Below are positions 48,580-64,000 of a DNA stretch of 64,000 nt, in pieces. The notes under the pieces are model-generated. The model did no database searches and had not been told where the DNA came from. It saw only the letters and a list, made by a program, of their open reading frames with translations. The stretch comes from an uncultured Solirubrobacterales bacterium (GTDB lineage: Bacteria; Actinomycetota; Thermoleophilia; Solirubrobacterales; 70-9), in NCBI GenBank assembly GCA_963795675.1, contig CAWCJB010000004.1, positions 306,376 to 370,375 on the forward strand, given 5' to 3'. The translations under genes were made by a program, and so were the position numbers. Each line of letters opens with the position of its first letter. Position 1 is the stretch's first letter.

Positions 48580-50031
48580 GTGAAGACGCCTGACGTGATC
48601 GTTGTCGGCGCCGGCGCGGCCGGTGCCTGGGCGGCCAAGGAGCTGGCCGAGCGCGGGCTCTCCGTCACCGTGCTCGATGCCGGGCCGCTGGTCGCGGCGC
48701 CCGACGGCACCGGGCTGGCGCGAAGGCCGGTGCAATCGCACTGCTACGCCTGCACCGAGGAGGCCGCCTACCTCTTCGTCGATGACCTCGACAACCCCTA
48801 CGAGGTGGCCCCTGGCACCCAGTTCAGCTGGCTCCGCGGCCGCCAGGTCGGCGGTCGGATGCTCACCTGGGGGCTGACCTCGCCGCAACTGGAGGACGAC
48901 GAGCTGAAGGCCGCCTCCGCCGACGGGATCGGCGAGAACTGGCCGCTCGCCGCCGCCGACCTCGCCCCCGCCTACTCGCGGGTCGAGGAGTTCCTCGAGG
49001 TCGGGCGAGGCCCGCTGAACGCCGCCGAGCGCGGGTTGAAGGAGGCGGTCGAGGCCCGCTGGCCGACCCGCCGGGTCGAGGCGAGCCCGAAAGCCTGCAA
49101 GGAACCGCTGCGGCCGCTGCAGGCCGCCCTCGCGACCGGTCGCGTGACGCTGCTCGCCGACACGATCGCCGAGCGGCTGCTGGTCGGAGCCGACGGCGAC
49201 CGGGTGAGCGGCGTGGTCGTGGTCGATCGGCGCAGCGGCGCCCGCGACGAACTATCGGCCCGGGCTGTCGTCCTCTGCGCCTCGACGCTCGAGTCGACCC
49301 GCCTGCTGCTCAACTCGGCCGGTGGCGATCACCCCGACGGCCTGGCGAACTCCTCAGGCGCCCTCGGCCGCTACTTGATGGACCACACCTCTGGGGTCTA
49401 CTTCGAGGGCCGCGCTCCCCGCCGCGAGAGGTCGGCGGAGGAGTCGCCGAGCGAAGGCGGCTTCCTGGGCGGATTCCGCAACGTCACCGAGCCGGTCGAC
49501 GGGTTCCATCGCAGCTACGAGGTCGAGTTCCAGGTGCTCCCCGGCAGCGGGCGGCGGAGGCCACTGCGGCGCGACACCAGGGACACCTTCTGGATGTGCG
49601 CCTTCGGCGAGATGCTGCCCGACCTGGAGAACCGGGTCGAGATCGATCCGGGCCGGACCGACGCCTGGGGTATCCCCACCCTGCTGGTCAGCGCCCGCCA
49701 CTCCGACAACGAGCGGGCGATGGCGGCCGATCAGGCCACCACGCTGAAGGAGATGCTCGACGTCGCCGGCTTCGAGATCACCGGCAGCGAAACCAAGCTC
49801 GCCCCGATCGGCATGACGGCCCATGAGATGGGCACCGCGCGGATGGGCGCCGACCCGGCCACCTCCGTCCTCAACTCCTGGAACCAGGCCTGGGACATAC
49901 CCAACCTCTTCCTCACCGACGCCGCCAGCTTCACCTCCAGCGGCCACCGCAACCCGACCCTGACGATCATGGCCCTGACCGTCCGCGCCTGCGGCCGGCT
50001 GGCCGACCTGCTCGAGGGCGGCGACCTCTAA
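48580..50031 (+). CDS. GMC-family FAD-dependent oxidoreductase
   Basis: DVIVVGAGAAGAWAAKELAERG. C-terminal ...HEMGTARMG... and ...NPTLTIMAL.... Confidence 0.8.
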   Translation: MKTPDVIVVGAGAAGAWAAKELAERGLSVTVLDAGPLVAAPDGTGLARRPVQSHCYACTEEAAYLFVDDLDNPYEVAPGTQFSWLRGRQVGGRMLTWGLTSPQLEDDELKAASADGIGENWPLAAADLAPAYSRVEEFLEVGRGPLNAAERGLKEAVEARWPTRRVEASPKACKEPLRPLQAALATGRVTLLADTIAERLLVGADGDRVSGVVVVDRRSGARDELSARAVVLCASTLESTRLLLNSAGGDHPDGLANSSGALGRYLMDHTSGVYFEGRAPRRERSAEESPSEGGFLGGFRNVTEPVDGFHRSYEVEFQVLPGSGRRRPLRRDTRDTFWMCAFGEMLPDLENRVEIDPGRTDAWGIPTLLVSARHSDNERAMAADQATTLKEMLDVAGFEITGSETKLAPIGMTAHEMGTARMGADPATSVLNSWNQAWDIPNLFLTDAASFTSSGHRNPTLTIMALTVRACGRLADLLEGGDL

Positions 50032-50426: not shown

Positions 50427-51314
50427 TCAGTGGCTTTCGGCCGCCGACTGAAGGTGCGATTCAAACTCGCTGGTCGCGTTGAACACTTCGTCCGGGTCCG
50501 GTAGCCCGATCTTCGGCACCCGACCGAAGTCGACGTAGTCGATGGTCATGTCGGTGGTGGTCGACTCTTCCTCTTCGCCCACCGTGCCCGAGACGACCAC
50601 CTGCATCCGCCGCACGCGGTCCTGCCCGTCGATCCAGACGTCGGTATGCAGCGCCGAGACGTGAAGCTTGACGCCGAATACTTCTTCGGCAGCAGGCAGG
50701 ATGCCCCGGAAGTGCGTGGTCGGCACCCCGCCGATGTCCTCCTTGCCGATCTCTTCCGCGCCCTGGACGCGTTCGAGGATCTTCAGTCCTTCCTCTGGCC
50801 CGGCATCGGCCGAGGCCGCGGAGCCGAGGCCTTTGACCGCAGACGAAAGATCCAGCTCGAGCCACTTCTTCCCTTCCGGGAACGATTCGAACTGATCCGA
50901 GCTCACATAAGTCGTCGTGCCGTTCACGATGGCCAGGGCCTTAACTTCGCGGCCGGTCTTGTGGCCCTTGACGGTGAACGTCCCGCGGGACCGGCCGCTG
51001 TCGTCGAAGACCAGGGATCCGGTCTCGGTGAGCCCTTCAGGCGTGGTCGCCGAGGTGACCGTGGCATGGAACACGGCGCGCCCTCCCGGCTCACGCTGCG
51101 TGATCTCGGCCGCATTCGCGATCGCGTTGAGCGGCCCGCCGCCGCTGCCGCCCCCTTGCGCCACGACGAAGGCGACGATGGCGATGGCCACCACCGCCAG
51201 GCCGGCGCCGACCCACCGACGGGCCCGCTGACGTCCAGGCGCATCGCCTTCGACCCCCGCAGATTTCAGCCCGCCCCCCACGCTTGGATGAGGATAATCG
51301 TTTCGGTACGCCAT
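50427..51314 (-). CDS. membrane-anchored/exported hypothetical protein
   Basis: MAYRNDYP..., one TM segment (WVGAGLAVVAIAIVAFVV), then a soluble domain of about 230 aa. The track start is 51368. Confidence 0.5.
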   Translation of the reverse strand: MAYRNDYPHPSVGGGLKSAGVEGDAPGRQRARRWVGAGLAVVAIAIVAFVVAQGGGSGGGPLNAIANAAEITQREPGGRAVFHATVTSATTPEGLTETGSLVFDDSGRSRGTFTVKGHKTGREVKALAIVNGTTTYVSSDQFESFPEGKKWLELDLSSAVKGLGSAASADAGPEEGLKILERVQGAEEIGKEDIGGVPTTHFRGILPAAEEVFGVKLHVSALHTDVWIDGQDRVRRMQVVVSGTVGEEEESTTTDMTIDYVDFGRVPKIGLPDPDEVFNATSEFESHLQSAAESH

Positions 51315-51469
51315 CGGCTTGGGGAAGGAGTACGAAAAACGAACCGTGATGGCCCCGAGACCTCCCACGCGCTCACGTTCGATTGGTCGGCACCTTTAGA
51401 GGCGGTGTAGGTTGCGCGGATGCGCCGGATCCCTTTCCCATCAAGACTCGATACGACGGAGAAACTCAG

Positions 51470-51970
51470 ATGAGAGCTTCCAAGAAGATCGGCCGCCTTT
51501 GCACAACTTCCGTGCTCCTTAGCCCCTGTGTCTTCGCTGTACTAGTGAGCTCTGCGAGTGCGATCGGTGGTTCCACCGTGACCTTCGAGGAACTTGACAA
51601 GGGCTCGACCTTCCATTTCGTCGACAACGCGCCGAAAGCCACGCTCAAGAACGGCGCGTTGTTCAGCCCGGGCGACATGCTGATCGTCACCAACCCGCTC
51701 GCGATGGGAGGCAAGGTCGTAGGCAAGATCCGGACCGTCTGTACGGCGACCGGTGCCGGCAACACCAAGAACCCAGCCGCGGCCGGCTTCGACTGCACCG
51801 GGATAGGCAGGATTCCGGGTGGATCCTTGGTCCTCGTAGGGGAACTGGGCGAAGGGCCTGTGGAAGGTGCCATCACGGGTGGCACGGGGATCTACGCGGG
51901 AGCGAGGGGCACCTTCGTCTCCAGGAACGGAAAAAGCTTCTCGACGACCACGGTGACGCTGCTCGAATAG
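51470..51970 (+). CDS. secreted small beta-barrel protein (dirigent/allene-oxide-cyclase-like)
   Basis: Signal peptide. ...GD.LIVTNPL...G..VGKIRTVC.....ITGGTGIYAGARGTF... pattern. GGAGA Shine-Dalgarno before the ATG at 51470. Confidence 0.5.
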   Translation: MRASKKIGRLCTTSVLLSPCVFAVLVSSASAIGGSTVTFEELDKGSTFHFVDNAPKATLKNGALFSPGDMLIVTNPLAMGGKVVGKIRTVCTATGAGNTKNPAAAGFDCTGIGRIPGGSLVLVGELGEGPVEGAITGGTGIYAGARGTFVSRNGKSFSTTTVTLLE

Positions 51971-52123
51971 GGACCATGGTCTTCGACCGGCATCCTCGGC
52001 CATGCGGGATCAACGGAAGGAGGTGAGTGAGATATTCGTGCGACCGCCGAACATGTTGACTTTGTTCGCGTCGGGAGCCCTCAGGTCGTGAGAACGTGCT
52101 TAGCGGCGACGGAGCCTGCGGTG

Positions 52124-53134
52124 CTAGTTGTGGACGATGTAGGCGCGTCGACCGTCAGGCGCGACCGAGATCACGAGCGGGAATGGTCCGACTTCGATCG
52201 CCTTGCCGACCACCTTGTCGGTCTTGGTGTCGATCACCGAAAGGGTTCCCGGTCCCAAACCGGTCACATAGGCGCGAGCGGCGACAGGGCTGATCGCGAT
52301 GGACGTCGGCCGATGCGCCACCCGTATCGGAGCGGCAGCCGGTCGACCGGTCTTGGCCGAGATCACCGAAACCGTGCCTTCTCGCGCATTGGCGACATAG
52401 ACGCGCTGCCCGTCAGGGGTGATGGAGACCGAGGTCGGACTCTTTCCCGTCCTGATCTTCCTGGCGGCGACAGTGTTCGTCGCGGTCCGGATGACGGAGA
52501 GGGTGTCGTCGCGAATGTTGGCCACGTAGACGCGACCGCCATCCGGAGCGACGGCGAGCGCCAGCGGATCCCGTCCGACCTTGATCGCGCGAGCGTCGAC
52601 CTCGTCGGTCGTGGTGTCGATCACAGATACGGTGCCGGCGCGGGTGTCGGTGACGTAGGCGTGAGTGCCGTCGGGCGAGATCGCGATGGCCGTCGGAGCG
52701 CGGCCGACCTTGATCGTCGCCACCACAGTGTCGGTCGCGGTATCGATCGCGGAGACCGAGTTGCTGCCGGAGTTGACGGCGTATACCCGGCTGCCGTCCG
52801 GGGTGATCGCGATTCCTTCCGGGTCGGGCCCGATCCGTATCGGGCTGCCGATCAGTCGGTCGGTCGCGAGATCGATCACCGCGACGCTCCTGTTTCCGGA
52901 GGTGACCACATAGGCCTTCTGACCGTCTGGACTGATCGCGATCGAACTCGCGTAGGGCCCGACCTTGATCGGCTTGGCCGCCGGCCGGTCGGTCGCGGTG
53001 TCGATGACCGCCACCGTCCGACGGGGAGCGAGGATTCCGCTTTGAACTCTTGCCTCAGCGACGAATGCGAACATCAGCGACCCCGCGACCAACAGCACGA
53101 GAGCGGCCCATCCACGGAGGCCTTTCTGAATCAC
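52124..53134 (-). CDS. YVTN-family seven-bladed beta-propeller repeat protein, exported
   Basis: Seven repeats of ...P..IAI(S/T)PDG..(A/V)YV.N.....VSVID..T.....I.VG.... N-terminal signal/anchor. Confidence 0.8.
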   Translation of the reverse strand: MIQKGLRGWAALVLLVAGSLMFAFVAEARVQSGILAPRRTVAVIDTATDRPAAKPIKVGPYASSIAISPDGQKAYVVTSGNRSVAVIDLATDRLIGSPIRIGPDPEGIAITPDGSRVYAVNSGSNSVSAIDTATDTVVATIKVGRAPTAIAISPDGTHAYVTDTRAGTVSVIDTTTDEVDARAIKVGRDPLALAVAPDGGRVYVANIRDDTLSVIRTATNTVAARKIRTGKSPTSVSITPDGQRVYVANAREGTVSVISAKTGRPAAAPIRVAHRPTSIAISPVAARAYVTGLGPGTLSVIDTKTDKVVGKAIEVGPFPLVISVAPDGRRAYIVHN

Positions 53135-53212
53135 CGGCCGAACCTAGCGTGTTCAGCCCGCGGAGCCGCCGCGCTCCGGATCGCCCCACCTGACGCGCTT
53201 TGGTTCATAGTC

Positions 53213-54898
53213 TCAACTTGAGCTGCCGATGCCAAGGGAGGCGATATCGACTCCGAAGGTCGGGTTCGAAACTATCTTCCCAAGGTCGATCCGCCTTGAG
53301 ACGAAGACCGGCACGAGGTTGTTGCCGATCGGAACCCACGGGGCGAAGTGCATGTAGGTCCGGTCCAGTGCGGCGTAGCGGCCTTCCGGCGTCGTCGGCG
53401 CGGGCCGCGTCTCAAGGCGGTCGATCATCTGCGTCAGGTCAGGGACGAAGAATCGCGACAGGTTCTGGTTGTAGTAAGGGGTGGCGCGAGTGCCGAGCGT
53501 TTCCCTGAAGAAGTCATCCGGATCCGGATAGTTGGCGAAGTAGCCGCTGAGCCCGGCGTCGGGATTTGCCTGCCCGGGGCCTTCGATCAAGGCGAAATAG
53601 CGTTCCGGTTCGAGGACCTTCAGGTGGACGGTGAACCCGAGTTCTTCGAGAACCGCGGCGAAGTAGACGTTGAACTCGACTGGCGTGAGGTCGCCGGGTT
53701 CGCCGTAAGTCCAGAGGGTGATGTCGCGGACCGACGGGTTCGCCGCGCCGATCATCTGCCGCGCCTTGGCCATGTCGTGGGGATAGAGAGAGGACTTCCT
53801 GTATCCCGGCAGGTCGGGCGGAAGGATCTGCTGCGTCGGTGACACCTGGCCGCCGGAGAGGAGGCTGAAGACGTTGCGGTTGATGGCGAAGTTGACCGCG
53901 CGGCGGACCCGGACGTCGTCGAAGGGGGGCTTCGAGGTGTTCAGCCAGAAGTATTCGGTGCTGAGGGTGGGCTCGAGGCGGACGCGAGACGGGAACCGGT
54001 GCCGCAGGGACACGTAGTCGGCACCGGACATCTCTTCGGATATCCAGTCGATCTTCCCCTTTTCGACGCCCCTTATCGCCTTCGCCACGCTGCGGACCAC
54101 CCTGATCCTGATCGTGTCGAGATGCCCGCTCGGGATCCGCGGCATCAACTTGTGGTTGCGCGACCGCCACTCGGGGTTCCGCTCGTAGGTCCAGCCGCGC
54201 CGCGTCGAGTGGGTGATGACGTAAGGACCGGTGGCCGGGGGCGGATCGAACGTTTGATTGTGGATCGGCGTGCCCGGCGGCACCGGCGCCGTGAACGTCA
54301 TCGCCAGCTTGCGGGCGAAGGACCGTTCCGGCCTGACCAGATGGATCACGATGCTCCCCGTCCGGTCGTCGGTGACGATCCCTGGCATGCCCCCAAGCCC
54401 CGTCCTCTCGAACCTTTTGGCGCCGACGATGTCGTCGTAGAAGTAGTCGGGGCCGTAGCCCGAATCGAGGCGGAACATCCGTTCGACCGTGAACCTGAAA
54501 TCCGACGCCCGGACCGGCTCACCGTCCGAGTAACGGAGGCCTCTGCGGAGGTGCAGCGTGTAGGTGCGGCCGTGGTCGGTGATCCGCGGCAGACTCCGGG
54601 CGAGACCGGGAATGACCTCGCTGCCGGCCTTGCCGCCTGCGTGTCTATAGGTGAGCAGCGGGATGTAGGTGTCGTAGATCACGTCCAGGCTGTAGTTGCT
54701 CCAGGCCACCTGAGGGTCAAGGTCGGGACGCCAGGTGTATGCACCCGTGACGGTCCGCGCGGCTCGTCCATGCGGCTCTTGTTGACGCCCATGGGGTGGC
54801 TTACCGCCGGCGCCTGCGGACCCTGCGTTGCTCAAGAGGGCGGCAGCCGCGACGAGGATCCCGAGCCAATACCTATTGAGCCGCAAGGGCGAGATCAT
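53213..54898 (-). CDS. ABC-transporter substrate-binding protein, family 5 (peptide/nickel type), orphan
   Basis: 561 aa with a signal peptide and SBP_bac_5-like length and motifs. No permease or ATPase genes are adjacent. Confidence 0.7.
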   Translation of the reverse strand: MISPLRLNRYWLGILVAAAALLSNAGSAGAGGKPPHGRQQEPHGRAARTVTGAYTWRPDLDPQVAWSNYSLDVIYDTYIPLLTYRHAGGKAGSEVIPGLARSLPRITDHGRTYTLHLRRGLRYSDGEPVRASDFRFTVERMFRLDSGYGPDYFYDDIVGAKRFERTGLGGMPGIVTDDRTGSIVIHLVRPERSFARKLAMTFTAPVPPGTPIHNQTFDPPPATGPYVITHSTRRGWTYERNPEWRSRNHKLMPRIPSGHLDTIRIRVVRSVAKAIRGVEKGKIDWISEEMSGADYVSLRHRFPSRVRLEPTLSTEYFWLNTSKPPFDDVRVRRAVNFAINRNVFSLLSGGQVSPTQQILPPDLPGYRKSSLYPHDMAKARQMIGAANPSVRDITLWTYGEPGDLTPVEFNVYFAAVLEELGFTVHLKVLEPERYFALIEGPGQANPDAGLSGYFANYPDPDDFFRETLGTRATPYYNQNLSRFFVPDLTQMIDRLETRPAPTTPEGRYAALDRTYMHFAPWVPIGNNLVPVFVSRRIDLGKIVSNPTFGVDIASLGIGSSS

Positions 54899-55525
54899 GG
54901 GCAGCGACCAGCGGTCCGTCCGGCGATGGCCTGGACGCCGCTGATGATCGGTTCGGTGACTTCGTTGCTCTTCGGTCGGAAGATGCCGACCATGAACAAG
55001 CAGCTCCCCTCAGTGAACAGGCCGCTCCCGACCCCGACTTCTAGCCCGAGTTCGTCAGCCGCCTTGCTAGGGAGAAACGCAAAGGCGACAGCCTTGGAGA
55101 CGCCGGGGACCTTGAAGCGTCGCAGGATGGGTAATTTCGGCGTCCCTTTGTTTCGCATCGCTCGCAGATCGAAGTCTTCCTTCAACCTGGCCTTCATCTC
55201 AGCTCTCGCGCCTGCCGCCGTTTCGAACTCGAAAACACTTGAGATGCCCCTGGCCGCCGGTTCGGTCCGGTCGTGGAGCCGGACGAGGGCCGCTTCGACG
55301 AAGCCCTCCGATGCATAGCGCCTGATTTCGGGCTCGGCAGGACTTTCTCCTGCGCCGTCTCTCACCGCCGAGACCGTCCGGAACACCTGGGCCTTGCCGG
55401 GCAACGACCCCAGGCATGTTTCCCGGCTTCACCAGATAGGAGACGAGCGGGGAGGGGTCGCTGGCGTTTGCCACTGAGGGCAATATCCCGACCAAAACCA
55501 GCGTCGCGGCGGCCAGAAACCACAT
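54895..55525 (-). pseudogene. exported hypothetical protein interrupted by a +1 frameshift at a G4 (C4 on the plus strand) run
   Basis: Signal peptide MWFLAAATLVLVGILPSVANA (ORF 55199..55567) continues in the frame of ORF 54895..55404 after 55408-55411. ATGA overlap with the downstream SBP start. Confidence 0.55.
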
Positions 55526-55606
55526 CGTCCGCCGACAGGAGCCCGAGATCGGTTCAATCGCCGTCATAAAGTCCTTCGGTTTCAGGTCGCCCAGCTTTCC
55601 TAGGTC

Positions 55607-55855
55607 TCAGGTCGCCGAGATCAGTGCGCCACCTAACGGTACTTCGCTTCCCCAGCGATAAACGCCGAACACGATCAGAGTAACGAACAGGCCGAGTACC
55701 GCCGCTAGCAGTTCGCCTCGAATCAGACAGGCGACAATTGCAAGCCCGCAAACCGCTGCCATGACAAGCCAAGTACCGACATTCCATTCATTTTCCTGCC
55801 CTAAGTATGGCGCCGTTGGTGACAACTCTGGCCCGGTCATCTGATTTCTTAGCAT
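55607..55855 (-). CDS. small two-TM membrane protein (82 aa)
   Basis: Two hydrophobic helices. Located in the lower-GC region. Confidence 0.4.
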   Translation of the reverse strand: MLRNQMTGPELSPTAPYLGQENEWNVGTWLVMAAVCGLAIVACLIRGELLAAVLGLFVTLIVFGVYRWGSEVPLGGALISAT

Positions 55856-55900
55856 GCACCCGCTCCATGAGCCCTTACGCCTCGGAACGCAGCGCGACGG

Positions 55901-56242
55901 TCATTCGGGCTCGCAGCCCTTGAGGGACAAGGTGGCTGGATCAATTGCTTCGCCGTTCGCACGCGCACGCTCTTCAGCCTTTCTGCTCTCTTCGAGCACC
56001 ATTTGGCGTATCTCCTTGCATTTTCTCTGGACCTTCGCGGTGCTGCTGCTAGTCAGACCTCTGGCCCCGGCTTCTCCGCCGGTTTGGTTGCCACCGGTTC
56101 CACACGACGCCATCCCAACGGCGAGCACAAGAACCACACACATCATCGAGACCACCGAGAGACGCGAACTGCGGATAGGACGGAGCCGTACCGTCGCCTT
56201 GCTTGAGCACTGAATCATGTTGACCTCTCTCGCCGCATCCAC
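55901..56242 (-). CDS. small lipoprotein; candidate immunity protein for the orphan RHS tip
   Basis: Lipobox-like VLAVGMASCG. Lies immediately downstream of the orphan RHS cassette. Confidence 0.5.
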   Translation of the reverse strand: MDAAREVNMIQCSSKATVRLRPIRSSRLSVVSMMCVVLVLAVGMASCGTGGNQTGGEAGARGLTSSSTAKVQRKCKEIRQMVLEESRKAEERARANGEAIDPATLSLKGCEPE

Positions 56243-56297
56243 GGCCTACGACTCCGGCCCGGCCGGAGCGCCTTCGACGCGATGGTAACAGCAGCAG

Positions 56298-57311
56298 CTA
56301 GGCATCTATCACCACCACTTGGCCACACTTTTCTCCGCTCGCATTCGCGCCAGCCAAGAGCACGCAATATTGCAGCGAACCTATTTCATCCAAACGGAAT
56401 TTCATTCCGATCGGCAGGGACCCGTTCAATTCTGGCGGATTATGGAGTCCTGAAATGGGCCCGGTTCCGCCAGCCGCAATATAGAACGCCCTGACCTCAA
56501 CCGGTTCGCTACACGAGTAGCTGATGTTGCCGGTGATATACGCGGTGTCGCTACCGACGGAGCCGACAATGTGGGAAAGTGACGGATGAATCGTGCAGGG
56601 TCCGACCTGTGACGCCGGGGGGCGACGCGGCTCTCCGCCGCTTCCGCCCCCCCGGTGGGTGGAGGCATTCTTCGGGGGATGTTGCTTGCCCGCTGCACCG
56701 GCACTCCCACCTGCGCACTTTCCCCCTGGCTTGTTCCTGATGCACGTACCTTCCAGGTCAAAGGTATTGACCGGATTCTGATCGACATAGTCATACGCAT
56801 TTGCCGATCCCCCCGTGACAGGATCAGAACTCAGGAACCGGCCAAGCTGCGGGCTGTAACTTCGGGCACCCATCTGGATCACGCCGGACTGGAGTTCGGT
56901 ACGCCGTAATTTTCCACCCAGCCAGCCGAATCTCCCCGCGCTACCCGACACCGGCTCGCCAAATTCATCGAATCGATAGGTAGCCAGCAGTTTCGTCGCC
57001 GTCGGACTCGAACTCGCCGAGGCCACCACATCGCCGTGCAGCTCCGTGAGGTCAAAGGTCGTCCCGCCGCTTTCCTGCACCGCGGCGAGTTCCCCGCCGA
57101 TCCCGGCTATGTCGCGGGTCCAGTTCGTGCCCCGTTCGGTCCACGCGACCGAGTCGGAAGGACCGTCGTAGTGGAAGTTCCGCCGGAAGGTGTCTGGTAG
57201 GCCGAATCCCGCCAGACAGAGCCGATCACGTCCATGGAGTTCAGCTGAGTTCGGTGGAGTCGGGGACCACATTCGGGACCAAGCTTTGGGAGGACAAGAC
57301 GAGAGGTACAA
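56298..57311 (-). CDS. orphan RHS repeat-associated core plus alternative C-terminal tip (CT2); probably not independently initiated
   Basis: Residues 46-189 are collinear with residues 1450-1594 of the large RHS protein ([15 protein letters not shown]...[32 protein letters not shown]). The tip then diverges. Confidence 0.75.
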   Translation of the reverse strand: MYLSSCPPKAWSRMWSPTPPNSAELHGRDRLCLAGFGLPDTFRRNFHYDGPSDSVAWTERGTNWTRDIAGIGGELAAVQESGGTTFDLTELHGDVVASASSSPTATKLLATYRFDEFGEPVSGSAGRFGWLGGKLRRTELQSGVIQMGARSYSPQLGRFLSSDPVTGGSANAYDYVDQNPVNTFDLEGTCIRNKPGGKCAGGSAGAAGKQHPPKNASTHRGGGSGGEPRRPPASQVGPCTIHPSLSHIVGSVGSDTAYITGNISYSCSEPVEVRAFYIAAGGTGPISGLHNPPELNGSLPIGMKFRLDEIGSLQYCVLLAGANASGEKCGQVVVIDA

Positions 57312-57425
57312 GCAGGATTCGACCTACTTGTATTTGTTCTCCCCGATCCCGCTCGGCTGAAAGGTCGGGGTTGTCGCGTCGGGCGGCTTCAGGTCGTCGA
57401 GACGTGCCCGGCGGCGGCCCGGGTG

Positions 57426-57761
57426 CTAGTTGTGGACGATGTAGGCGCGTCGACCGTCAGGCGCGACCGCTATCGCGAGCGGGAAGGGTCCGACCTCGAT
57501 CGGCGTGCCGACCCTAACGTTGCTATTGGTGTCGATCACCGAAAGAGTGCCCGGTTCCATGCTGGCCACATCCGCTCGATCGGCAACAGGGCTGAACGCG
57601 ATGGTCGTCGACCTATGCGCAACCCGTATCGGGGCGCAGGCCAGCCTGCCGGTCTTGGCTGAGATCACCTGAACCGTGTCGTCCCGCGCGTTGGCGATGT
57701 AAAGGCGGCGACCGATCGGCGAGATCAACGCCCGTCCGGATCCGGCCGTGACTTTGCTGGT
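57426..57761 (-). pseudogene. truncated copy of the 3' third of the YVTN gene
   Basis: Translation is collinear with the last 110 aa or so of 52124..53134. An in-frame TGA lies at 57762-57764. The DNA similarity continues about 60 nt past the stop. Confidence 0.75.
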
Positions 57762-57863
57762 TCAGATGGGGTCACTTCCCCAGTTCAGGTGGGTCGGCCG
57801 GCGTTCTTGGATCCATAGCTCTGGCTCGTTGATGATGTACCAGATGCGCGGGCCGTTGCGGGC

Positions 57864-58601
57864 TCAGCCACACTCCGCGGGGGCAATTCCGCGTAGGTAC
57901 GCCCCTCGCCCTCCTTCCATACCTGCGACAACCGACACCTTCTGCCCGGCGGTCAGGCAGGGCTCGACCAGATAGGCGAATATGGAAACGTCCCTGCGCA
58001 GCCCGAACTTCCTGGCGAGAGTTCCGCTCATTACCGCCACAATTGGGCGCGGCCCGGGTGCGAGGCCTTGATCGGCGACCGACAACGTAAGGTCTTCCAC
58101 CCTCCCTTCGACCGCTCCGGACACGACGGTGACCTTCGAGACGCCGTTCCGGCCCGGATTGAGTCCACTAGGCCCTATCCGGCACTGCGCATGACAGATC
58201 GGCGCCCCCGCGGAGACATGGACGCAAGCGCCTCCGCTGGTGGCACCTCTCGATGGTTGTTCCAGCCCATAGCACAGTTCCCTGGACCCGTGATGGGCGC
58301 GGAGGTGGGCGACGAGGCGAAACCAGCCGCCCAGCCTTCTTCCGCACCCTATGACGGTCGGACTGACGAGGACACGGTAGGGTCGAGGGTATAGGCTCGG
58401 CGGGATCTTGATCGGCGGATCTTCCGATCCTCGGCATCCGCCGTAATCAGACCTGACCATCGCCGACACATCGACCTGCTTCGACGCGACCTGCTTCGAC
58501 GGTTCAGGTCCCTGCGCCGTTCTCTCCACGGCATATGCAACACCTATCGACACGAGCACCAGGAGCACCGAGAGCAGCGCGATTTTCCCTGGTCGTCTCA
58601 T
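57864..58601 (-). CDS. exported Cys-rich hypothetical protein; candidate immunity protein for RHS tip CT1
   Basis: Signal/anchor MRRPGKIALLSVLLVLVSIGVAYA. Lies immediately downstream of the RHS gene. Confidence 0.5.
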   Translation of the reverse strand: MRRPGKIALLSVLLVLVSIGVAYAVERTAQGPEPSKQVASKQVDVSAMVRSDYGGCRGSEDPPIKIPPSLYPRPYRVLVSPTVIGCGRRLGGWFRLVAHLRAHHGSRELCYGLEQPSRGATSGGACVHVSAGAPICHAQCRIGPSGLNPGRNGVSKVTVVSGAVEGRVEDLTLSVADQGLAPGPRPIVAVMSGTLARKFGLRRDVSIFAYLVEPCLTAGQKVSVVAGMEGGRGAYLRGIAPAECG

Positions 58602-58654
58602 CGGTCGACGGGTCGGGGGGTCACGGTGTAATTCGAGGCTGGCTGATTCATCTA

Positions 58655-61600
58655 TTAGTAATGATTTTCGACCACGATTTCATGCTCGTAGCATTTTCGT
58701 TCACTCTGAGCATCGCCGACCGCGACGACGCATACGGTTAGGATTTCCCCCGTAGACACGGCCCCGGAATAGGCGACGGGGGTTAGCAGCAGGGTGCCGC
58801 TGGGACCCCTGGCAGTCGCGGTTTCGCTGGTTTGCCCCCTGAAGGTCAGGTAGGCCGAAACGGAGACCGATTCTCGGGCTTGGTAGTTGAACGCCGCCCC
58901 TACGAGGCCACCGGCGCATTTGCAGCCCCCGCCAGTTACGGTGATGGTGTGGCTTTGTATTAGCGGTGGCTTTCTTGGCTGGCTACCCTTGTGGCCCCCG
59001 CCGCCGTTCCTTCCCTTGCCATAGTGATTTTCATGGCCCGGGCTTTGCCCAGGGCATACCCTGCCGGAATGCTGCCTCGCGTGAGCACACGTACCTCTGA
59101 GGTCAAACGCATTTATCGGATCCTGGTTCGTGTAGTCGTATGCGTTGGCTGAGCCGCCCGGGACTGGATCAGGGGTCAGGAATCGACCGAGTTGCGGGAT
59201 GTAGCTCCTGGCTCCCATCTGGATCACGCCCGATGATAGTTCGGTACGTCGCGATTTGCCTCCCAGCCAACCGAATCGGCCCGGAGTGCCCGACTCCGGT
59301 TCGCCGAATTCGGAGAATCGAGAGGTGCCAAGGAGTGCCGTCGCGGTGGGACTCGAACTCGTCGAGGCCACCACGTCTCCGTGCAGGTCGGTGAGGTCGA
59401 AGGTGGTCGCCCCGCCGCCTTCCTGCACTGCGGCGAGTTCCCCTCCGATCCCGGTGATGTCGCGCGTCCAGTTAGAAGCGCGTTCGGTCCACGCGACCGA
59501 GTCGGAAGGACCGTCGTAGTGGAAGACTTCGGTCCCTTCGAGGCCTCCACCGCCCTGCAGGCGGGCGCGCTGGCGGCCCGTGCCGTCGAGTTCGTAGCTG
59601 TTGGTGATCCCGGCCTGTTCCTGGCGGGCCACCATGTTCGTGGCGTAGTAGGCGGTGGTCAGTTCATGGCCGCCGGCGTCCGCGGCCGGCAGTTTGGTGA
59701 TGCGTCCGAAGGCGTCGTAGGCCAGCCCTCCGCCCATCAGGCGGTCGGCCGCGTCGTAGGTGTAGTTCTGGATCGCGCCGCCCGAGGTCACGCACGCCCC
59801 GCCGATCCCCGGTTCACGCGTCGCCTTGGTCAGGCGGTTGGAGTCCGCGTCGTAGATGTAGGCACGGGTCGTGCATTCGCCCCTGGCCGGGGTTTCCTGA
59901 GCTTCGCTCAGGCGACCATCTTTGTCGTAGACGTAGTGGTCGCTGACCAGCGAGCCGTTGTCGGTGATGATCTGGCCATAGATCGAGCGTTCGAGCTGTT
60001 CTTCGAACCAGGTGCAGCCTTTTTCCCCGCACGAGCTCGTCTTCGTGTAGGCGAGTTTCACCGGTTCGCCCGCCACGTTGTAGCCCGTCGTCGCCGTGAG
60101 GCCGTTCGGCATGCCTCTGGCGATCAGCGAGCCGTCGGCGTCGTAGGTCCCGGTGAAGGTCCCCACCCCGGAAACTTCCAGGCTGGTGAGGACGCCGGAG
60201 TGTTCGTCGTAGTGGAGGGTCTGCGTCCCCTTCCCGTCGGTGACCGTCGCCGGCCGCCCGTCGAGGTCATAGGTGGCCGTCGTCCTGTTGCCGTCGGCAT
60301 CTTCATAGGTTTCGACCCGACCGAGGGCGTCATAGGTCGTGGTCGTCGCCTGGCTGTCGAAGCCGGTGCATTCTTTTTCTTCGCAGACGGACTGCTGCTT
60401 CGTCGGCAACCCGGTGGTCGGGCTGTAGGTGATTTCGGTCTTCGGGACCGCCATGCCCCCGCCTTCGACATGGGTCGTCAGCTGGCGACCGGCTTCGTCG
60501 TAGACGCTGGTCGTCGTCCGGACGCTTTCGAAGCCACCGGCCGGGCTTTCTTCGACCACCTGGGTCGGCTCGTCCAGATTGTCGTAGGCGGAGAACTTCT
60601 TGACCAGGAGTTTCGGGCGGTTTTCGCCGCTCGCCTGGGCGCCCGGTTCGATCTTGCAGGGAAGCCCCGCGTAGCTGGGCGCGCCCTGGCATTCGCCGCT
60701 CCCGGTCGCCTGGTAGTAGACGGTCTTCGTCGTCCCGGCACCTGCCCCTTCGGGGCTGCTGGGCTGGCGGGTTTCGAGGACCTGGCCGGTCGTTTCGTCA
60801 TAGACGGTCACCGACCGGAGGTCGAGGCCGGTGGGGTCGACGACCGTTTCGTAGGGCTTCAGGAGGTTCCATCTGTAGTGGATCAGGGTTTCGCGCCGGT
60901 CGGCGTCGGATGGATGGCCGGCGATGGCGGCGCCGGTGATCTCGGTCGTCGGCAGGGCCGGGGGCGGGGTGCCGGGCGGTGGGGTCGGCGCCCCTTCGTC
61001 GTAGCCGATCACTTCGTGGATCCGGGCTTCCGCCGTTTCGCCCGATTCCAGTCGCACGTGATGCAGCGGACCCCACGATTCGAGCATCTCCGTCCCTTCG
61101 GCGTTGTAGACGGAGTGGGTGTCGAGTTCGTGCGAGCGTTCGGCGGGGTGTTCTGACTGCAGGGCGAGGAGCCGGTTCTCGGGGGTGAGTTCCCGGACGA
61201 TGTCGCCTTTGGTGTTGAATTCCTGCGTGCCGATCGAGGGGCCCGGCTGGCCGGGGGGAGACGGGGAGGCCGTGTCGACCTCGCGTCCGGTGGGGTCCAT
61301 GTAGTGGACGGTCGCCTGCGAGTAGTCGCGGTAGGGCGGCGTCGACTCGACCCACTGCTCGACGGTGTTCGCGCCGGTGTCGGCGATCCAGATGTAGCCG
61401 CCCGAGACGACGGCGTCGGCCGGTTTCACGAGGGCTTGTTCGCCGTTGGAGGGGATCCCGAGTTCGCCGACGTATTCGCCCGAGGTGGTGAATTGCTGAA
61501 GCCGACTGTTGCCGGTGTCGGCGACCCAGATATGGCCTTCTTCTCCCCAGGCGACGCCTTCGGGAGCGCTCATCTGTCCTTCTTCGCCGCCGACTGAGCC

Positions 61601-64000
61601 GAATGACCCCTTGTTCTGGAGGAAGGTGGTGGTGTTGTACTTGAGCTCGACCACCCGGTTGTTGCCGCTGTCGGCCACCACGGCTTCGAGCCCTTCGTCG
61701 CCGACGGATATCCCGGTCGGGCCTTTCAGCCCGGTATAGGTCGCGAGGTCTTTGCCCGTCGAGAGGCTCAGGAGCTGGACGCGGTTGTTGCCGGTGTCGG
61801 CCACCCAGAGCCAGACGCCTTCGATCCCCACCCCGGTGGGGCCTTTGAACTGCGCGTTCCCGCTGCCGAGCGATCCGATCGTCTTCACGAACCCGCCGGT
61901 CGAGGTGAAGACCTCGATCCGGTTGTTGCCGGTGTCGGCGACGTAGACCCGCGAGCCGTTGGCCACGATCCCCCGCGGATGGCTGAGCTGGCCGTTACCC
62001 GAGCCGGAGGTGCCGAACTGCCTGATCAGGGTCCCTTCGGAGGAGAACTCCTCCACGCTGCTGTGTTCGGTGTCGGCCACCCAGACGTGGCCTTCGGGGT
62101 CGACCGACAGGGCCCGTGGCGAGGAGAATCCGCCGCCCGCGACTTCGGCCCCGGCGAATTTCGCCGCCCGGGTGAACTGTTCGTGGGGGACCTGGGTCGG
62201 CGGGAACACCGCGGTCGCGTCGACCGGGTAGTCGCCCTGCCCCCATCCGGCGACCGTCGACGGGCTCATCGTGTAGGGGGAGCCGGGTCCGCTCAGCGGG
62301 ACGTCGTAGACGACCGAGGTCCTCGCCTTTTTCGGGCTCGCCAGGAGACTCGCGCGGCCCGCGCTTTTCAGCCTGCCGTGGCTGCCGTAGGGGTAGTAGG
62401 TCATTTCCCACGGTTCCTGGCCCGGGGGGCTGATGGAGGTCATCTGCGCATTGATTTCGGGCGACGAGTATCCGTAGCCTTCGACCAGTTTCGGGCTGAT
62501 CCGGGGGTCCCACTCTTCGCTCAGCTGGCCCGCCGTGTCGTAGCCGTAGTCGGCCACCACCTGACTCGTCCCGTGGGCGTCGTAGTAGGTGATCGTCGCG
62601 AGGCGTTCGCCCGTGCCGCTCCCTCCCCAGTGGCTCACCGGCAGGTATCCGAAGAGCAGCGTGCGGCATCCGGGAACGCCTCCCGAGCTCAGTTCACCAC
62701 AGGTCACCCCCGGCTGGGGCGGCGCGACCTCGCGCATCAGCCGCAGCGATTTGCCGTGCGGTTCATAGACCATCTTGACCGCGCCGGGACCGGTCTTGAA
62801 GGTGATCGCCTTCGGCAGGTAGGTGTGTTCGCTGCTCTTGACGAAGATGGTGTGGGTGCCGTTCGGGTCGGTGAGGCCGATGTGTTCGGCGTCTTCCCTC
62901 ACGAGGTCGAATTCCTTCGCGTATGCCGGCGCGACGTAGGTCGAGCCTTCGATGCCGAATTCGATCGCCGAGCCTTCGCTGTCGATCAGTTCCATCCACC
63001 GTTCTTCGGGCTGGGCTTCTTCGACCATCCATTCTTCGCACGATTCGGCCGGGCAGCCCGACCCGCATGCCACCGTTTCGCCTTCTTCGTCCCAGCATTC
63101 GCGTTCGTACCTCGGCGGGGTGGCCGGGATCACCCGTTCTTCCAGGCTGACCCAGGCGAGGCCCTGGTTTTCGGCTTCCGCGGGGACCGTGGGCTGCCAC
63201 GCGTACCCGAGGGCTTCCGACTGCCCTGGCAGGTTGCCGCCGATCGTGGAGTCGTAGGTGCGGGCGAATTCGAGCGTCGCTTCGGTGCCCGGGACCGGGA
63301 CCGATACGTCGGTGCGCTGGACGGTGAAGGCGCCGGTCAGCAGGTCGACGGTCCCCGGCCCGATCGATTCGGTCGCGTCGGTCGGCACGCGGCTCCCGTT
63401 TCGTTCGTGGACGAATTCGGTCGTCACCGGGACCGTCGCGCCGCCGCTCGCCACCCGGGAGTTGTCGAAGACCGCGCGGAATTCGACGCCTTCCTGGCGG
63501 ATGTATTCCCAGTGGAGCGCCGGACAGGTGCGAAGGTCGAGGTAGACGGGTTCGCTGCGCCGGGCTTCGGTGGAGACCGGCATCGGCCAGGAGACCGGTT
63601 CGCCCCCTCCGTCCAGCACGCATTCGGCGGGTAGCGTCCTGAACGTCGTCGACAGGCCGGGGGCCTTCATCTGGAAGGTGAGACCGGTGTAACCCGGTGG
63701 ATTGGTCCCCCATTCGGCCTGGAGGGTGAAGTAGCTCGCCCGCTTTTCCCCCGCCTGCGGATAGAGGAGCTTGACGGATTCCGGGGCCGCCGGATAGGCG
63801 GCCGTGTTGAAGGTCCAGGCCGACGGCACCGGGTCGGCGACCCCTTCGGGGCCGACGGCTTCGATCGTCAAGGTATGCGGATCTTTTCCTTCCAGGTGCT
63901 GCGGCAGCGCATAGGGCGAGGAGCAGGCGACCGGTTCTTTGTCGAGGGTGCAGTGGAAGGTCGCCCCTGCCGCGTTGGAGTGGAATTCGACCGGCCCTGG
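58655..64000 (-). CDS. RHS/YD-repeat protein with an internal six-bladed NHL propeller and a polymorphic C-terminal tip (5' end outside the window)
   Basis: YD repeats (YDA.GR, YD.DGR...), six NHL blades (aa 575-842 of the track ORF) and an RHS core ending ...[17 protein letters not shown]. The frame stays open upstream of the listed TTG all the way to position 64000. Confidence 0.9.

Follow-up and report, generated by a model that had tools for sequence, protein, structure and literature searches.

A tip, its partner and a displaced second cassette in the DNA of a soil actinobacterium, an uncultured member of the Solirubrobacterales, form an RHS polymorphic-toxin locus, a known kind of system that here carries new tip and partner families. 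We consider it moderately probable that the locus encodes a polymorphic RHS toxin exported by the Sec route. On this reading, its tip, which does not look enzymatic, acts outside the cytoplasm, and a partner protein tethered on the cell exterior neutralises it. We infer both the toxicity and the envelope target of the tips.

The window, meaning the whole stretch of DNA analysed, comprised 64,000 nt of contig CAWCJB010000004.1 (GCA_963795675.1, forward strand 306,376-370,375; GTDB lineage Bacteria; Actinomycetota; Thermoleophilia; Solirubrobacterales; 70-9). Coordinates are window positions, the region under study was 52064-64000, and all listed genes lie on the minus strand. Reading that strand, the order was the main RHS gene with tip CT1, P245, a YVTN' fragment, an orphan core with tip CT2, a lipoprotein, a two-TM peptide, a split ORF, a solute-binding protein (SBP) gene and the full YVTN gene. 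An earlier note on this DNA had given the same order, and each of its elements was found at the given place. The features are as follows.

58655..64000, minus strand: main RHS/YD-repeat gene; frame open to the window end, at least 1781 codons, 5' end off-window
61352..62164, minus strand: NHL-repeat beta-propeller inserted ahead of the YD shell (PF01436 NHL, E 3.7e-32, three stretches)
59093..59248, minus strand: RHS-associated core domain (TIGR03696, 45.7 bits against a cut-off of 32.5, residues 1542-1593)
58967..59086, minus strand: His/Gly/Pro/Lys-rich linker of about 40 aa from core to tip (tip alignment, 8 loci)
58655..58966, minus strand: CT1 tip domain of 103 aa, predicted to fold as an Ig-like beta-sandwich; two Cys are invariant
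57864..58601, minus strand: P245, 245 aa; exported or membrane-anchored Cys-rich beta protein, candidate CT1 immunity protein
57409..57728, minus strand: YVTN' fragment, comprising the final 100 codons and a further 17 nt of a YVTN beta-propeller gene (ORF 57426-57728)
57161..57283, minus strand: conserved element of about 125 nt at the orphan 5' boundary (79-85% nt identity to L002 9755-9877 and L007 1264-1386)
56298..57311, minus strand: orphan ORF, core plus CT2 (TIGR03696, 52.8 bits against a cut-off of 32.5)
56743..57188, minus strand: RHS core fragment of the orphan, about 147 aa and collinear with the core of the main gene (BLASTP hit to that gene, E 3e-82)
56298..56742, minus strand: CT2 linker and tip, with the last 109 aa as the tip domain (56298-56627)
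55901..56242, minus strand: small lipoprotein, candidate CT2 immunity protein; lipobox LA[VL]GM[AT]SCG, likely start 56218
55607..55855, minus strand: two-TM peptide, 82 aa; hydrophobic stretch at residues 24-70
54895..55567, minus strand: exported protein split over two frames (parts 55199-55567 and 54895-55404)
53213..54898, minus strand: family-5 solute-binding protein gene (SBP_bac_5 PF00496, E 1.2e-55)
52124..53134, minus strand: full YVTN beta-propeller gene, 336 aa (TIGR02276, E 5.3e-58, six repeats)

The frame of the main RHS gene was uninterrupted over 5.3 kb, and its 1781 open codons up to the window end agreed with the giant gene of more than 1780 aa, 5' end off-window, that the earlier note had described. 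The profile searches proposed there matched both RHS_repeat (PF05593, E 4e-9) and TIGR03696 in this gene. DUF6531 and TIGR01643 were matched as well, the latter at E 9e-4, above the family cut-off. SGL/ScyF-like matches were located at residues ~570-840 of the listed RHS ORF. The position of the NHL propeller directly ahead of the YD shell is a teneurin-like order, a likeness in architecture only, and the relative P0059 matched TEN_NHL with 44.5 bits against a cut-off of 27.1.

The core of the main gene ended in ...[19 protein letters not shown], where self-cleavage is presumed, with the motif taken from the translation. In the core-end sequence ...[23 protein letters not shown], the last motif was D-L-x-G-[TE] in all relatives, compared to the canonical DPxGL. 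The linker that follows was variable and of low complexity, ended in (K/R)(P/R)P(L) in the alignment of tips from 8 loci, and occurred in one common form with a CT1-type tip (L006) and a CT2-type tip (L013). The truly variable unit was the last ~100-110 aa after the linker, which corrects the earlier note. Sec-type signal peptides opened the RHS proteins of the relatives L009 and L010 (both full-length) and L014. The main RHS protein is thus presumably Sec-exported, a route judged from these relatives as its own N-terminus lies off-window.

The structure prediction that had been proposed for CT1 gave a confident generic Ig-like beta-sandwich of five strands (AF2, pLDDT 91.2, pTM 0.82, from 6 input sequences only). 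Foldseek returned only generic sandwich matches for the model (best E 4.6e-3, TM 0.4-0.55). The CT1 family had only 5 representatives among 1.84 billion proteins, and its invariant residues were H8, R33, E34, S35, C81, S90, E91, R92, C94, Y95 and H97. Given the invariant H, E, R, S and Y, catalysis by CT1 stays conceivable. C81 and C94 were cross-strand neighbours in the last hairpin of the model. The maximum Kyte-Doolittle value of CT1 over 19 residues was 1.51, and neither CT1 nor CT2 had a hydrophobic segment. After a weak Foldseek match to GbpA, a metal or 'histidine-brace' site formed by H8, H97 and Y95 was considered.

Neither tip had a sequence match in Pfam, NCBIfam, PADLOC or PDB, and the Pfam search at E up to 10 returned nothing except one spurious 11-bit match. 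This included the lactococcin 972 family, which Pfam-A presumably contains and which was not recognised among the top 50 Foldseek PDB matches either. The earlier note had seen no recognisable nuclease, deaminase or ART motif in either tip. A match to a known non-toxic domain, which would have counted against its reading, was likewise not found by sequence for either tip.

CT2 had been described as a different tip. It is indeed separate, but probably not unrelated: hhalign of CT2 against the CT1 profile gave a probability of 76% and E 2.3e-5. As each of the two invariant Cys of CT1 aligned with a Cys of CT2, a distant relationship between the tips is probable as judged by sequence. A Cys pair conserved in CT1 and CT2 alike points to an oxidising compartment. 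The CT1 polar residues were not kept in CT2, where ARES was replaced by CSEP and SERKCY.H by SGEKCGQV.

P245 was confirmed as the exported Cys-rich protein of the earlier note, with a predicted signal or anchor segment (hydrophobic residues 3-28) and 8 Cys. Across 25 relatives, seven of the eight Cys were invariant and one nearly so. The AF2 model (pLDDT 65) placed a TM helix at residues 7-28 ahead of a beta ectodomain, and the predicted protein would resemble tandem beta-sandwich domains on a membrane anchor. No significant match to P245 was obtained in Pfam Tox-/Ntox/Imm, NCBIfam, PADLOC or PHROGs.

The proposed comparison of related genomes, in which unconserved partner genes would have counted against the earlier note, revealed that the partners were kept beside their tips. 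A P245 homologue directly followed the CT1-type tip in all 10 locus types with downstream DNA (the window, L001, L003, L004, L006, L009, L010, L012, L018 and L028), with tip identities of 56-97% and P245 identities of 73-92%. Tip and partner identities co-varied (r = 0.88, 28 pairs that are not independent). The tip diverged faster than P245, with mean identities of 65% and 76%, respectively; a partner more conserved than its tip is not the usual picture for immunity proteins. In four further locus types (L002, L011, L014-17 and L022-27), intact P245 lay beside decayed RHS debris, and one P245 sequence (P0030) was present on 13 contigs. An intact P245 next to toxin debris is the pattern expected of orphan immunity genes. 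A P245 unlinked to RHS, as L001 and L002 seemed to offer, was rejected when DNA comparison revealed tip and core remnants at both loci.

The layout of a displaced orphan core and tip was supported, as the core fragment was homologous to the main gene and carried another tip with its own small downstream gene. The orphan core, 147 aa where about 145 had been estimated, was 76-90% identical in DNA (446 nt) to the main core (56743-57188 against 59088-59536; repeats D3, D7 and D10). This homology ended at the FHYDG codons (57188), with a conserved non-RHS element upstream, and the orphan had no N-terminal body and no evident start or promoter. The promoter/terminator scan returned 0 promoter-like sites. 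PADLOC returned nothing, and PHROGs returned an RHS-core match for the orphan. In L012 and L028, 3-4 core fragments each were present, and other tips there were followed by small membrane proteins.

The copies of the ~125-nt element in L002 and L007 both adjoined P245 genes, and the one in L007 ran into a tRNA-like T-arm. As a candidate tRNA or att remnant, the element was rejected: ARAGORN detected no tRNA with default settings and, with relaxed ones, nothing but a 'tRNA-Arg with a 100-nt intron', which is implausible. Rfam gave nothing meaningful for it, three sequences displayed no convincing covariation, and viral contigs contained no match.

A word-indexed search of 5.8 billion proteins contained no homologue of CT2. 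The sole relative, 76% identical, was detected by a DNA-pattern scan of metagenomes on contig L013 (1654 nt), on an RHS frame that stayed open upstream of the tip to the contig start, past the boundary of the orphan. The gene right after this tip was a homologue of the small lipoprotein (64% aa identity), in which the lipobox was kept, as was the helical C-terminal part with its 2 Cys. The pairing of CT2 with the lipoprotein is thus known from two loci, the window and L013. The conserved lipobox supports the lipoprotein assignment made in the earlier note, with a likely length of 105 aa from the MIQ start codon instead of 113. It had no significant match in Pfam, NCBIfam, PADLOC or PHROGs, where two weak matches reached E 0.03-0.1. 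The prediction that both candidate immunity proteins are exported was supported by the signal or anchor of P245 and by this lipobox.

The genes further downstream were largely as described. The two-TM peptide was present, with a GC3 of only 0.55, the weakest coding status of the set and no homologue in any compared locus. The protein described as frameshifted was split over two frames, with a GC3 of 0.74-0.75 backing the second frame downstream of ~55404; the cause may be either a true frameshift or an assembly error. The start of the SBP gene overlapped the upstream stop by 4 nt, and no permease or transporter gene adjoined it, in line with an orphan SBP. The full YVTN gene was likewise confirmed with its six repeats.

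The truncated YVTN copy was recovered as a 100-aa fragment that shares 72% protein identity with the full gene, over residues 238-336 of the latter. In DNA, the repeat pair 57409-57708 and 52107-52406 was 81% identical. In L001 too, P245 was followed by this truncated YVTN' piece, inside a 1577-nt alignment (92.5%) that ended at 57409. Judged from these alignments, YVTN' appears to travel with the CT1-P245 module. GC3 was 0.64-0.70 in the cassettes versus 0.80-0.84 in the RHS body, SBP and YVTN genes, and GC content dipped at 55500-56500 of the window; because of this difference, a foreign origin of the cassettes is suggested. A dedicated tyrosine recombinase moving the cassettes was considered and rejected, as the integrases of L003 and L011 matched in the catalytic motif only (45% over 40 aa) and the window contained none.

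In the mechanism that we propose, the shell would self-cleave at ...FDLRG(T) and free the tip at a neighbouring cell. The tip, a putative disulfide-stabilised Ig-like sandwich, would work on the outer membrane face or in the wall of a monoderm target, binding something essential without catalysis. P245, tethered outside the membrane, would capture the tip and so protect sibling cells. Action outside the cytoplasm is proposed because of the signal or anchor and the 8 Cys of P245, the lipobox of the second partner, and the two invariant Cys of the tips. The CT1-P245-YVTN' module may have entered through recombination within the core, for which one crossover of a circular fragment is the simplest route, and its arrival would have pushed the former tip CT2 and the lipoprotein downstream. 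The displaced CT2 cassette may serve as a silent reserve, with the lipoprotein still conferring immunity. More tentatively, and with somewhat less than even confidence, CT1 and CT2 could represent a new superfamily of RHS warheads that are Ig-like, locked by a disulfide and not enzymatic. Acting from outside, these would kill monoderm neighbours or arrest their growth, either by sequestration of a wall precursor or by blockage of a surface enzyme, and tethered extracellular decoys would counter them. Lacking a route into the cytoplasm of the target, the Sec-exported RHS proteins of these actinobacteria might be limited to tips of this envelope-acting kind.

The same tips could instead belong to a cytoplasm-acting enzyme toxin of an unrecognised family, with the exported neighbours as accessories for export, maturation or surface retention, or as linked passengers, and not as immunity proteins. 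The invariant His, Glu, Arg, Ser and Tyr of the CT1 family and the slower evolution of P245 relative to the tip are consistent with this, and characterised RHS tips are mostly intracellular enzymes (PMC3482391). However, the tip-to-partner gaps of 45-80 nt contained no cytoplasmic immunity candidate in any locus, CT2 lacked the invariant polar residues of CT1, the Cys pair in both tips hints at an oxidising compartment, and an export accessory hardly explains the partner-only loci. We regard such an enzyme as unlikely. A recognition or adhesion pair, in which the Ig-like tip is a polymorphic ligand and P245 and the lipoprotein are membrane-tethered receptors on siblings, appears quite unlikely. 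It would follow the logic of teneurin adhesion or of Proteus IdsD/IdsE self-identity. An Ig-like sandwich is more often a binding or adhesion module than a toxin, and the generic fold of the tip is of this binding type; P245 also looks like tandem beta-sandwiches on a membrane anchor, the NHL and YD parts resemble teneurins (TEN_NHL, 44.5 bits in P0059), and the tips have no enzymatic signature. Against this, orphan arrays and partner-only loci with decayed tips fit protection and not matching, the tip position after the RHS core is that of encapsulated toxins, and a receptor without its ligand is of little value, yet P245 was intact on 13 contigs beside RHS debris.

The locus might also be a decaying, non-functional remnant of mobile-element traffic, its adjacencies reflecting recent common descent only. 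Rearrangement scars are indeed present (the truncated YVTN copy, the split ORF and the orphan without a start), integrase genes or fragments and transposase genes abut RHS fragments or related cassettes in L003 and L011, and the relatives, all from a single order, share at least 55% identity. Nevertheless, this is very improbable, as the main RHS frame was open over 5.3 kb, full-length RHS genes with a CT1-type tip were present in at least four further lineages (L009, L010, L018 and P0059), and P245 was intact in 41 clusters with 63-92% identity and invariant Cys.

RHS toxins are well studied in Gram-negative bacteria, in which secretion machines inject enzymatic tips. To our knowledge, little is understood of the way in which monoderm soil bacteria harm neighbours with their Sec-exported RHS proteins. 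The locus is a compact case, with a ~100-aa tip, a confident all-beta model, no enzyme signature, a conserved predicted disulfide pair, and two tip variants, each with an exported partner of its own. Should the tip act by binding from outside, it would represent a new mode of action for polymorphic toxins and might reveal a new vulnerable envelope target in Actinomycetota. A pair that mediates recognition would instead be the bacterial equivalent of teneurin-type adhesion. In both cases, the locus offers a textbook example of tip displacement and of how orphan immunity genes are retained.

The closest known systems are Rhs of Salmonella and E. coli and WapA of Bacillus and Streptococcus. Shared features are the YD shell with a TIGR03696 core, a variable tip with a small cognate gene, downstream orphan cassettes that retain part of the core and are open to recombination with the main gene (PMC3967940, PMC3482391), and, for WapA, Sec-type export in monoderms (PMC12704120). 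In contrast, the tip and partner here belong to no described family, the partners are exported and not cytoplasmic, the core ends in D-L-x-G and not DPxGL, and an NHL propeller precedes the shell. Non-catalytic toxin tips have precedent (PMC3482391). Tse5 (RhsP1) of Pseudomonas aeruginosa is an RHS-encapsulated, envelope-targeting pore former with a non-cytoplasmic membrane immunity protein (PMC10684867), and our locus resembles it in the encapsulated tip and non-cytoplasmic immunity, the envelope target here being inferred; the Tse5 tip, however, is hydrophobic, helical and T6SS-delivered, whereas CT1 and CT2 lack a hydrophobic segment. Lcn972 is a small, unmodified beta-sandwich bacteriocin that binds lipid II and hits Gram-positive wall synthesis from outside without pores, with family members also in Actinobacteria (PMC9964109). 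The likeness of the small all-beta sandwich is one of possible mechanism only, as Lcn972 is a free bacteriocin with ABC-type immunity and not an RHS tip. TelC, an LXG toxin of Streptococcus intermedius, is toxic only outside the cytoplasm, and its immunity protein TipC carries a signal sequence (PMC5555719). No sequence or fold similarity between CT1 or CT2 and TelC was found, and TelC is a T7SS substrate and lipid II phosphatase with a novel enzymatic fold, whereas here an RHS carrier bears a small sandwich without an enzyme signature. Exported immunity, which the earlier note had called unusual, holds by prediction for both partners but is less unusual given this precedent (PMC5555719). The logic of TelC and TipC, a polymorphic toxin of a monoderm that is active outside and an immunity protein with a signal sequence, matches the one proposed here.

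The minus-strand gene order read in the earlier note was borne out by a six-frame ORF listing and translation. The features are as follows.

58655 to 64000 (window end), minus strand: giant RHS gene (main gene), 5' end off-window, ending in tip CT1
57864-58601, minus strand: P245, a 245-aa exported Cys-rich protein, candidate immunity protein for CT1
57426-57728, minus strand: YVTN', a YVTN fragment
56298-57311, minus strand: orphan, a second RHS core with tip CT2
55901-56242, minus strand: lipoprotein, candidate immunity protein for CT2
55607-55855, minus strand: two-TM ORF
54895-55567, minus strand: split exported ORF
53213-54898, minus strand: SBP gene, family 5 by profile match
52124-53134, minus strand: full YVTN propeller gene

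The frame of the main gene was free of stops across 1781 codons from 58655 to the window end. Profile searches, as the earlier note had recommended, detected DUF6531, an NHL-repeat propeller (E 3.7e-32), RHS repeats and the RHS-associated core (TIGR03696, 45.7 bits against a cut-off of 32.5). The core was followed by a linker of about 40 aa rich in His, Gly, Pro and Lys, and then by a tip domain of about 100 aa. The RHS gene products of three related loci (L009, L010 and L014) bore signal peptides.

The NHL beta-propeller (61352-62164) was located ahead of the YD shell, and the same layout was observed in the related RHS proteins P0059 and L009, the latter with additional Laminin_G_3 domains ahead of the shell. 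P0059 scored above the cut-off of the Pfam model for teneurin NHL. This order of NHL and YD shell, here in a soil actinobacterium, resembles that of teneurins.

The linkage of CT1 to P245 was analyzed in 15 locus types with a P245 homologue, searched with the window's proteins. A complete CT1-type tip lay directly upstream of P245 in 10 of the 15, so the partner was conserved in the comparison that had been named as a test.

Arrangement of CT1-type tips and P245 among the locus types
CT1-P245 on a full-length RHS gene: 4 types (window, L009, L010, L018)
CT1-P245 ending an array of 3-4 core fragments: 2 types (L012, L028)
CT1-P245 after a partial RHS core only: 3 types (L003, L004, L006; the L004 and L006 contigs, of about 2 kb, may hide a longer RHS gene)
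CT1 tip domain without any core, then P245: 1 type (L001)
Terminal part of a CT1-type tip, at the edge of the contig, with P245: an eleventh type (L007)
Intact P245 beside RHS debris only: 4 types (L002, L011, L014-17, L022-27)

Among the collected loci, no CT1-type tip with downstream sequence was without P245. A single P245 sequence from the debris-type loci was present on 13 contigs; orphan immunity genes would be expected to show just this pattern, a partner kept next to a decaying tip. Tip and partner identities co-varied (r = 0.88, from pairs that are not independent), and the CT1 tip diverged faster than P245. In L014 (1699-3828; also L015-L017), a 709-aa ORF upstream of P245 started like an RHS N-terminus, with a signal peptide and about 400 RHS-like residues, and continued into unrelated sequence without a YD shell. 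By its sequence, it looks like a rearranged RHS 5' remnant.

In P245, a signal/anchor helix was followed by a disordered spacer and then by a beta ectodomain. Eight cysteines were conserved in the aligned relatives (seven invariant and one nearly so), and a model of moderate confidence weakly resembled tandem Ig-like domains. All relatives in species-representative genomes came from Solirubrobacterales or Actinomycetota MAGs. Export of both candidate immunity proteins, as previously proposed, agreed with the helix of P245 and the lipobox of the CT2 partner.

The orphan ORF encoded 337 aa and matched TIGR03696 at 52.8 bits. At the protein level it aligned to the terminal part of the main gene (E 3e-82), and its DNA at 56743-57188 was 76-90% identical to 59088-59536; both alignments confirmed a second core collinear with the main core and carrying a different tip. 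The CT2 tip had no homologue in the protein search, and a metagenome scan found one contig, L013, with a 76%-identical tip. The L013 RHS frame was open to the contig start and reached past the orphan's boundary. A lipoprotein homologue with the same lipobox and C-terminal helix lay immediately 3' of this tip, and the CT2-lipoprotein pairing thus recurred in the cross-genome comparison suggested earlier. A CT1-type tip in L006 has the same linker as the L013 tip (CRNKKYPECRIPPPKQGHH...), which indicates that exchange occurs between the linker and the domain of about 100 aa.

The CT1 family is tiny: six relatives were found in a word-indexed search of 5.8 billion proteins and five, one a 2510-aa RHS/NHL protein, in an exhaustive HMMER profile search of 1.84 billion representatives. 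The tip matched no Pfam family even at E up to 10, except for one spurious 11-bit match, and nothing in NCBIfam, PADLOC, PHROGs or PDB sequences at the thresholds used, in line with the view that the tips hold no recognisable motif. An AlphaFold2 model from six sequences (pLDDT 91, pTM 0.82) had five strands, and Foldseek returned only generic Ig-like or FN3-like sandwiches (TM 0.4-0.55; best E 4.6e-3 in PDB and 1.3e-3 in BFVD). Among the invariant residues are Cys 81 and Cys 94, placed opposite one another in the final hairpin of the model. A profile comparison gave a 76% probability (E 2.3e-5) that CT2 is related to the CT1 family, with both cysteines in alignment; the CT1-invariant polar residues were not kept, which argues against a common catalytic site. 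As modelled, the warhead is Ig-like and seemingly non-enzymatic, in two matched variants.

YVTN' (100 aa) shared 72% identity with the C-terminal end of the full YVTN protein, and the repeat ran 17 nt beyond its stop codon. The same truncated copy followed P245 in L001, inside a 1577-nt alignment at 92.5% that ended at window 57409, which assigns YVTN' to the mobile module. GC3 was 0.80-0.84 in the RHS body, SBP and YVTN genes, 0.64-0.70 in CT1, P245, CT2 and the lipoprotein, and 0.55 in the two-TM ORF; by these lower values the cassettes look foreign.

In L003 (8964-9836, 11289-12515), a full tyrosine integrase was directly upstream of an orphan core-CT1-P245 cassette; downstream was an rve transposase, and a TrwC relaxase was close by. 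An RHS YD fragment of L011 (10754-11215) was joined in frame with the C-terminal portion of a different integrase, which had only the catalytic motif in common with that of L003. L012 (1-9950) and L028 (1-3950) contained arrays in which 3-4 RHS core fragments bore other tips. One array tip was Gly/Ala-rich and hydrophobic, another preceded a 98-aa membrane protein and was itself duplicated in tandem, and an IS21-like transposase pair was inserted in the L012 array. Small membrane proteins came after other tips of the L012 array, a hint that envelope-acting tips are common in the lineage.

A conserved non-coding element of about 125 nt (core TGGTCCCCGACTCCACCGAACTCAGC) was located at the orphan's 5' edge (57161-57283, minus strand) and also adjoined P245 genes in two other genomes (L002 9755-9877; L007 1264-1386). 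The L007 copy continued into a stretch resembling the T-arm and acceptor end of a tRNA. The window copy met the RHS core precisely where the NFHYDGP codons lie, and these codons matched the L007 tRNA-like stretch at 17 of 21 positions.

The two overlapping frames of the reported frameshifted exported protein were present, changing near 55404; because related MAG loci lie on long, long-read-like contigs, an indel error in the assembly is as likely as a true frameshift. A 4-nt overlap between the stop of this split ORF and the start of the SBP gene points to a former operon. Beyond the YVTN gene, 50427-51970 held a 313-aa ORF (minus) and a 195-aa ORF (plus), unannotated and predicted to be exported or membrane proteins, and a GMC-type oxidoreductase ORF was at 48580-50031.

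The architecture, the tip-partner pairings and the export signals supported the displaced-tip reading of the locus. Pure decay is very improbable: the long open RHS frame contradicts it, as do homologues that are intact in several lineages. A cytoplasmic enzyme toxin whose neighbours are not immunity proteins would agree with the invariant polar residues of CT1; it is nevertheless unlikely, given their loss in CT2 and the lack of a cytoplasmic candidate immunity gene between tip and partner. Similarly doubtful is a recognition or adhesion pair, which would suit the Ig-like folds and the teneurin-like layout but leaves the partner-only loci unexplained.

For a displaced-tip toxin, we propose that the RHS shell would self-cleave at the core end, and that the released tip, a disulfide-stabilised sandwich, would act by binding outside the cytoplasm of a monoderm target, with siblings protected by the tethered partner protein. 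The CT1-P245-YVTN' module may have arrived via recombination in the core, with the former CT2 cassette staying behind as an orphan.

Since RHS tips without a characterised function are frequent and there are precedents for immunity proteins that are exported, a specialist would be moderately surprised. The locus is of a known kind, in which an RHS polymorphic toxin is accompanied by a displaced orphan; its tip and partner families are undescribed, rare and probably envelope-acting. Precedents exist for orphan Rhs recombination (PMC3967940), non-catalytic toxin tips (PMC3482391) and an Rhs pore former (PMC10684867). Lcn972 is a lipid II binder with a sandwich fold (PMC9964109), and in TelC/TipC the toxin is active only outside the cell and the immunity protein has a signal sequence (PMC5555719).
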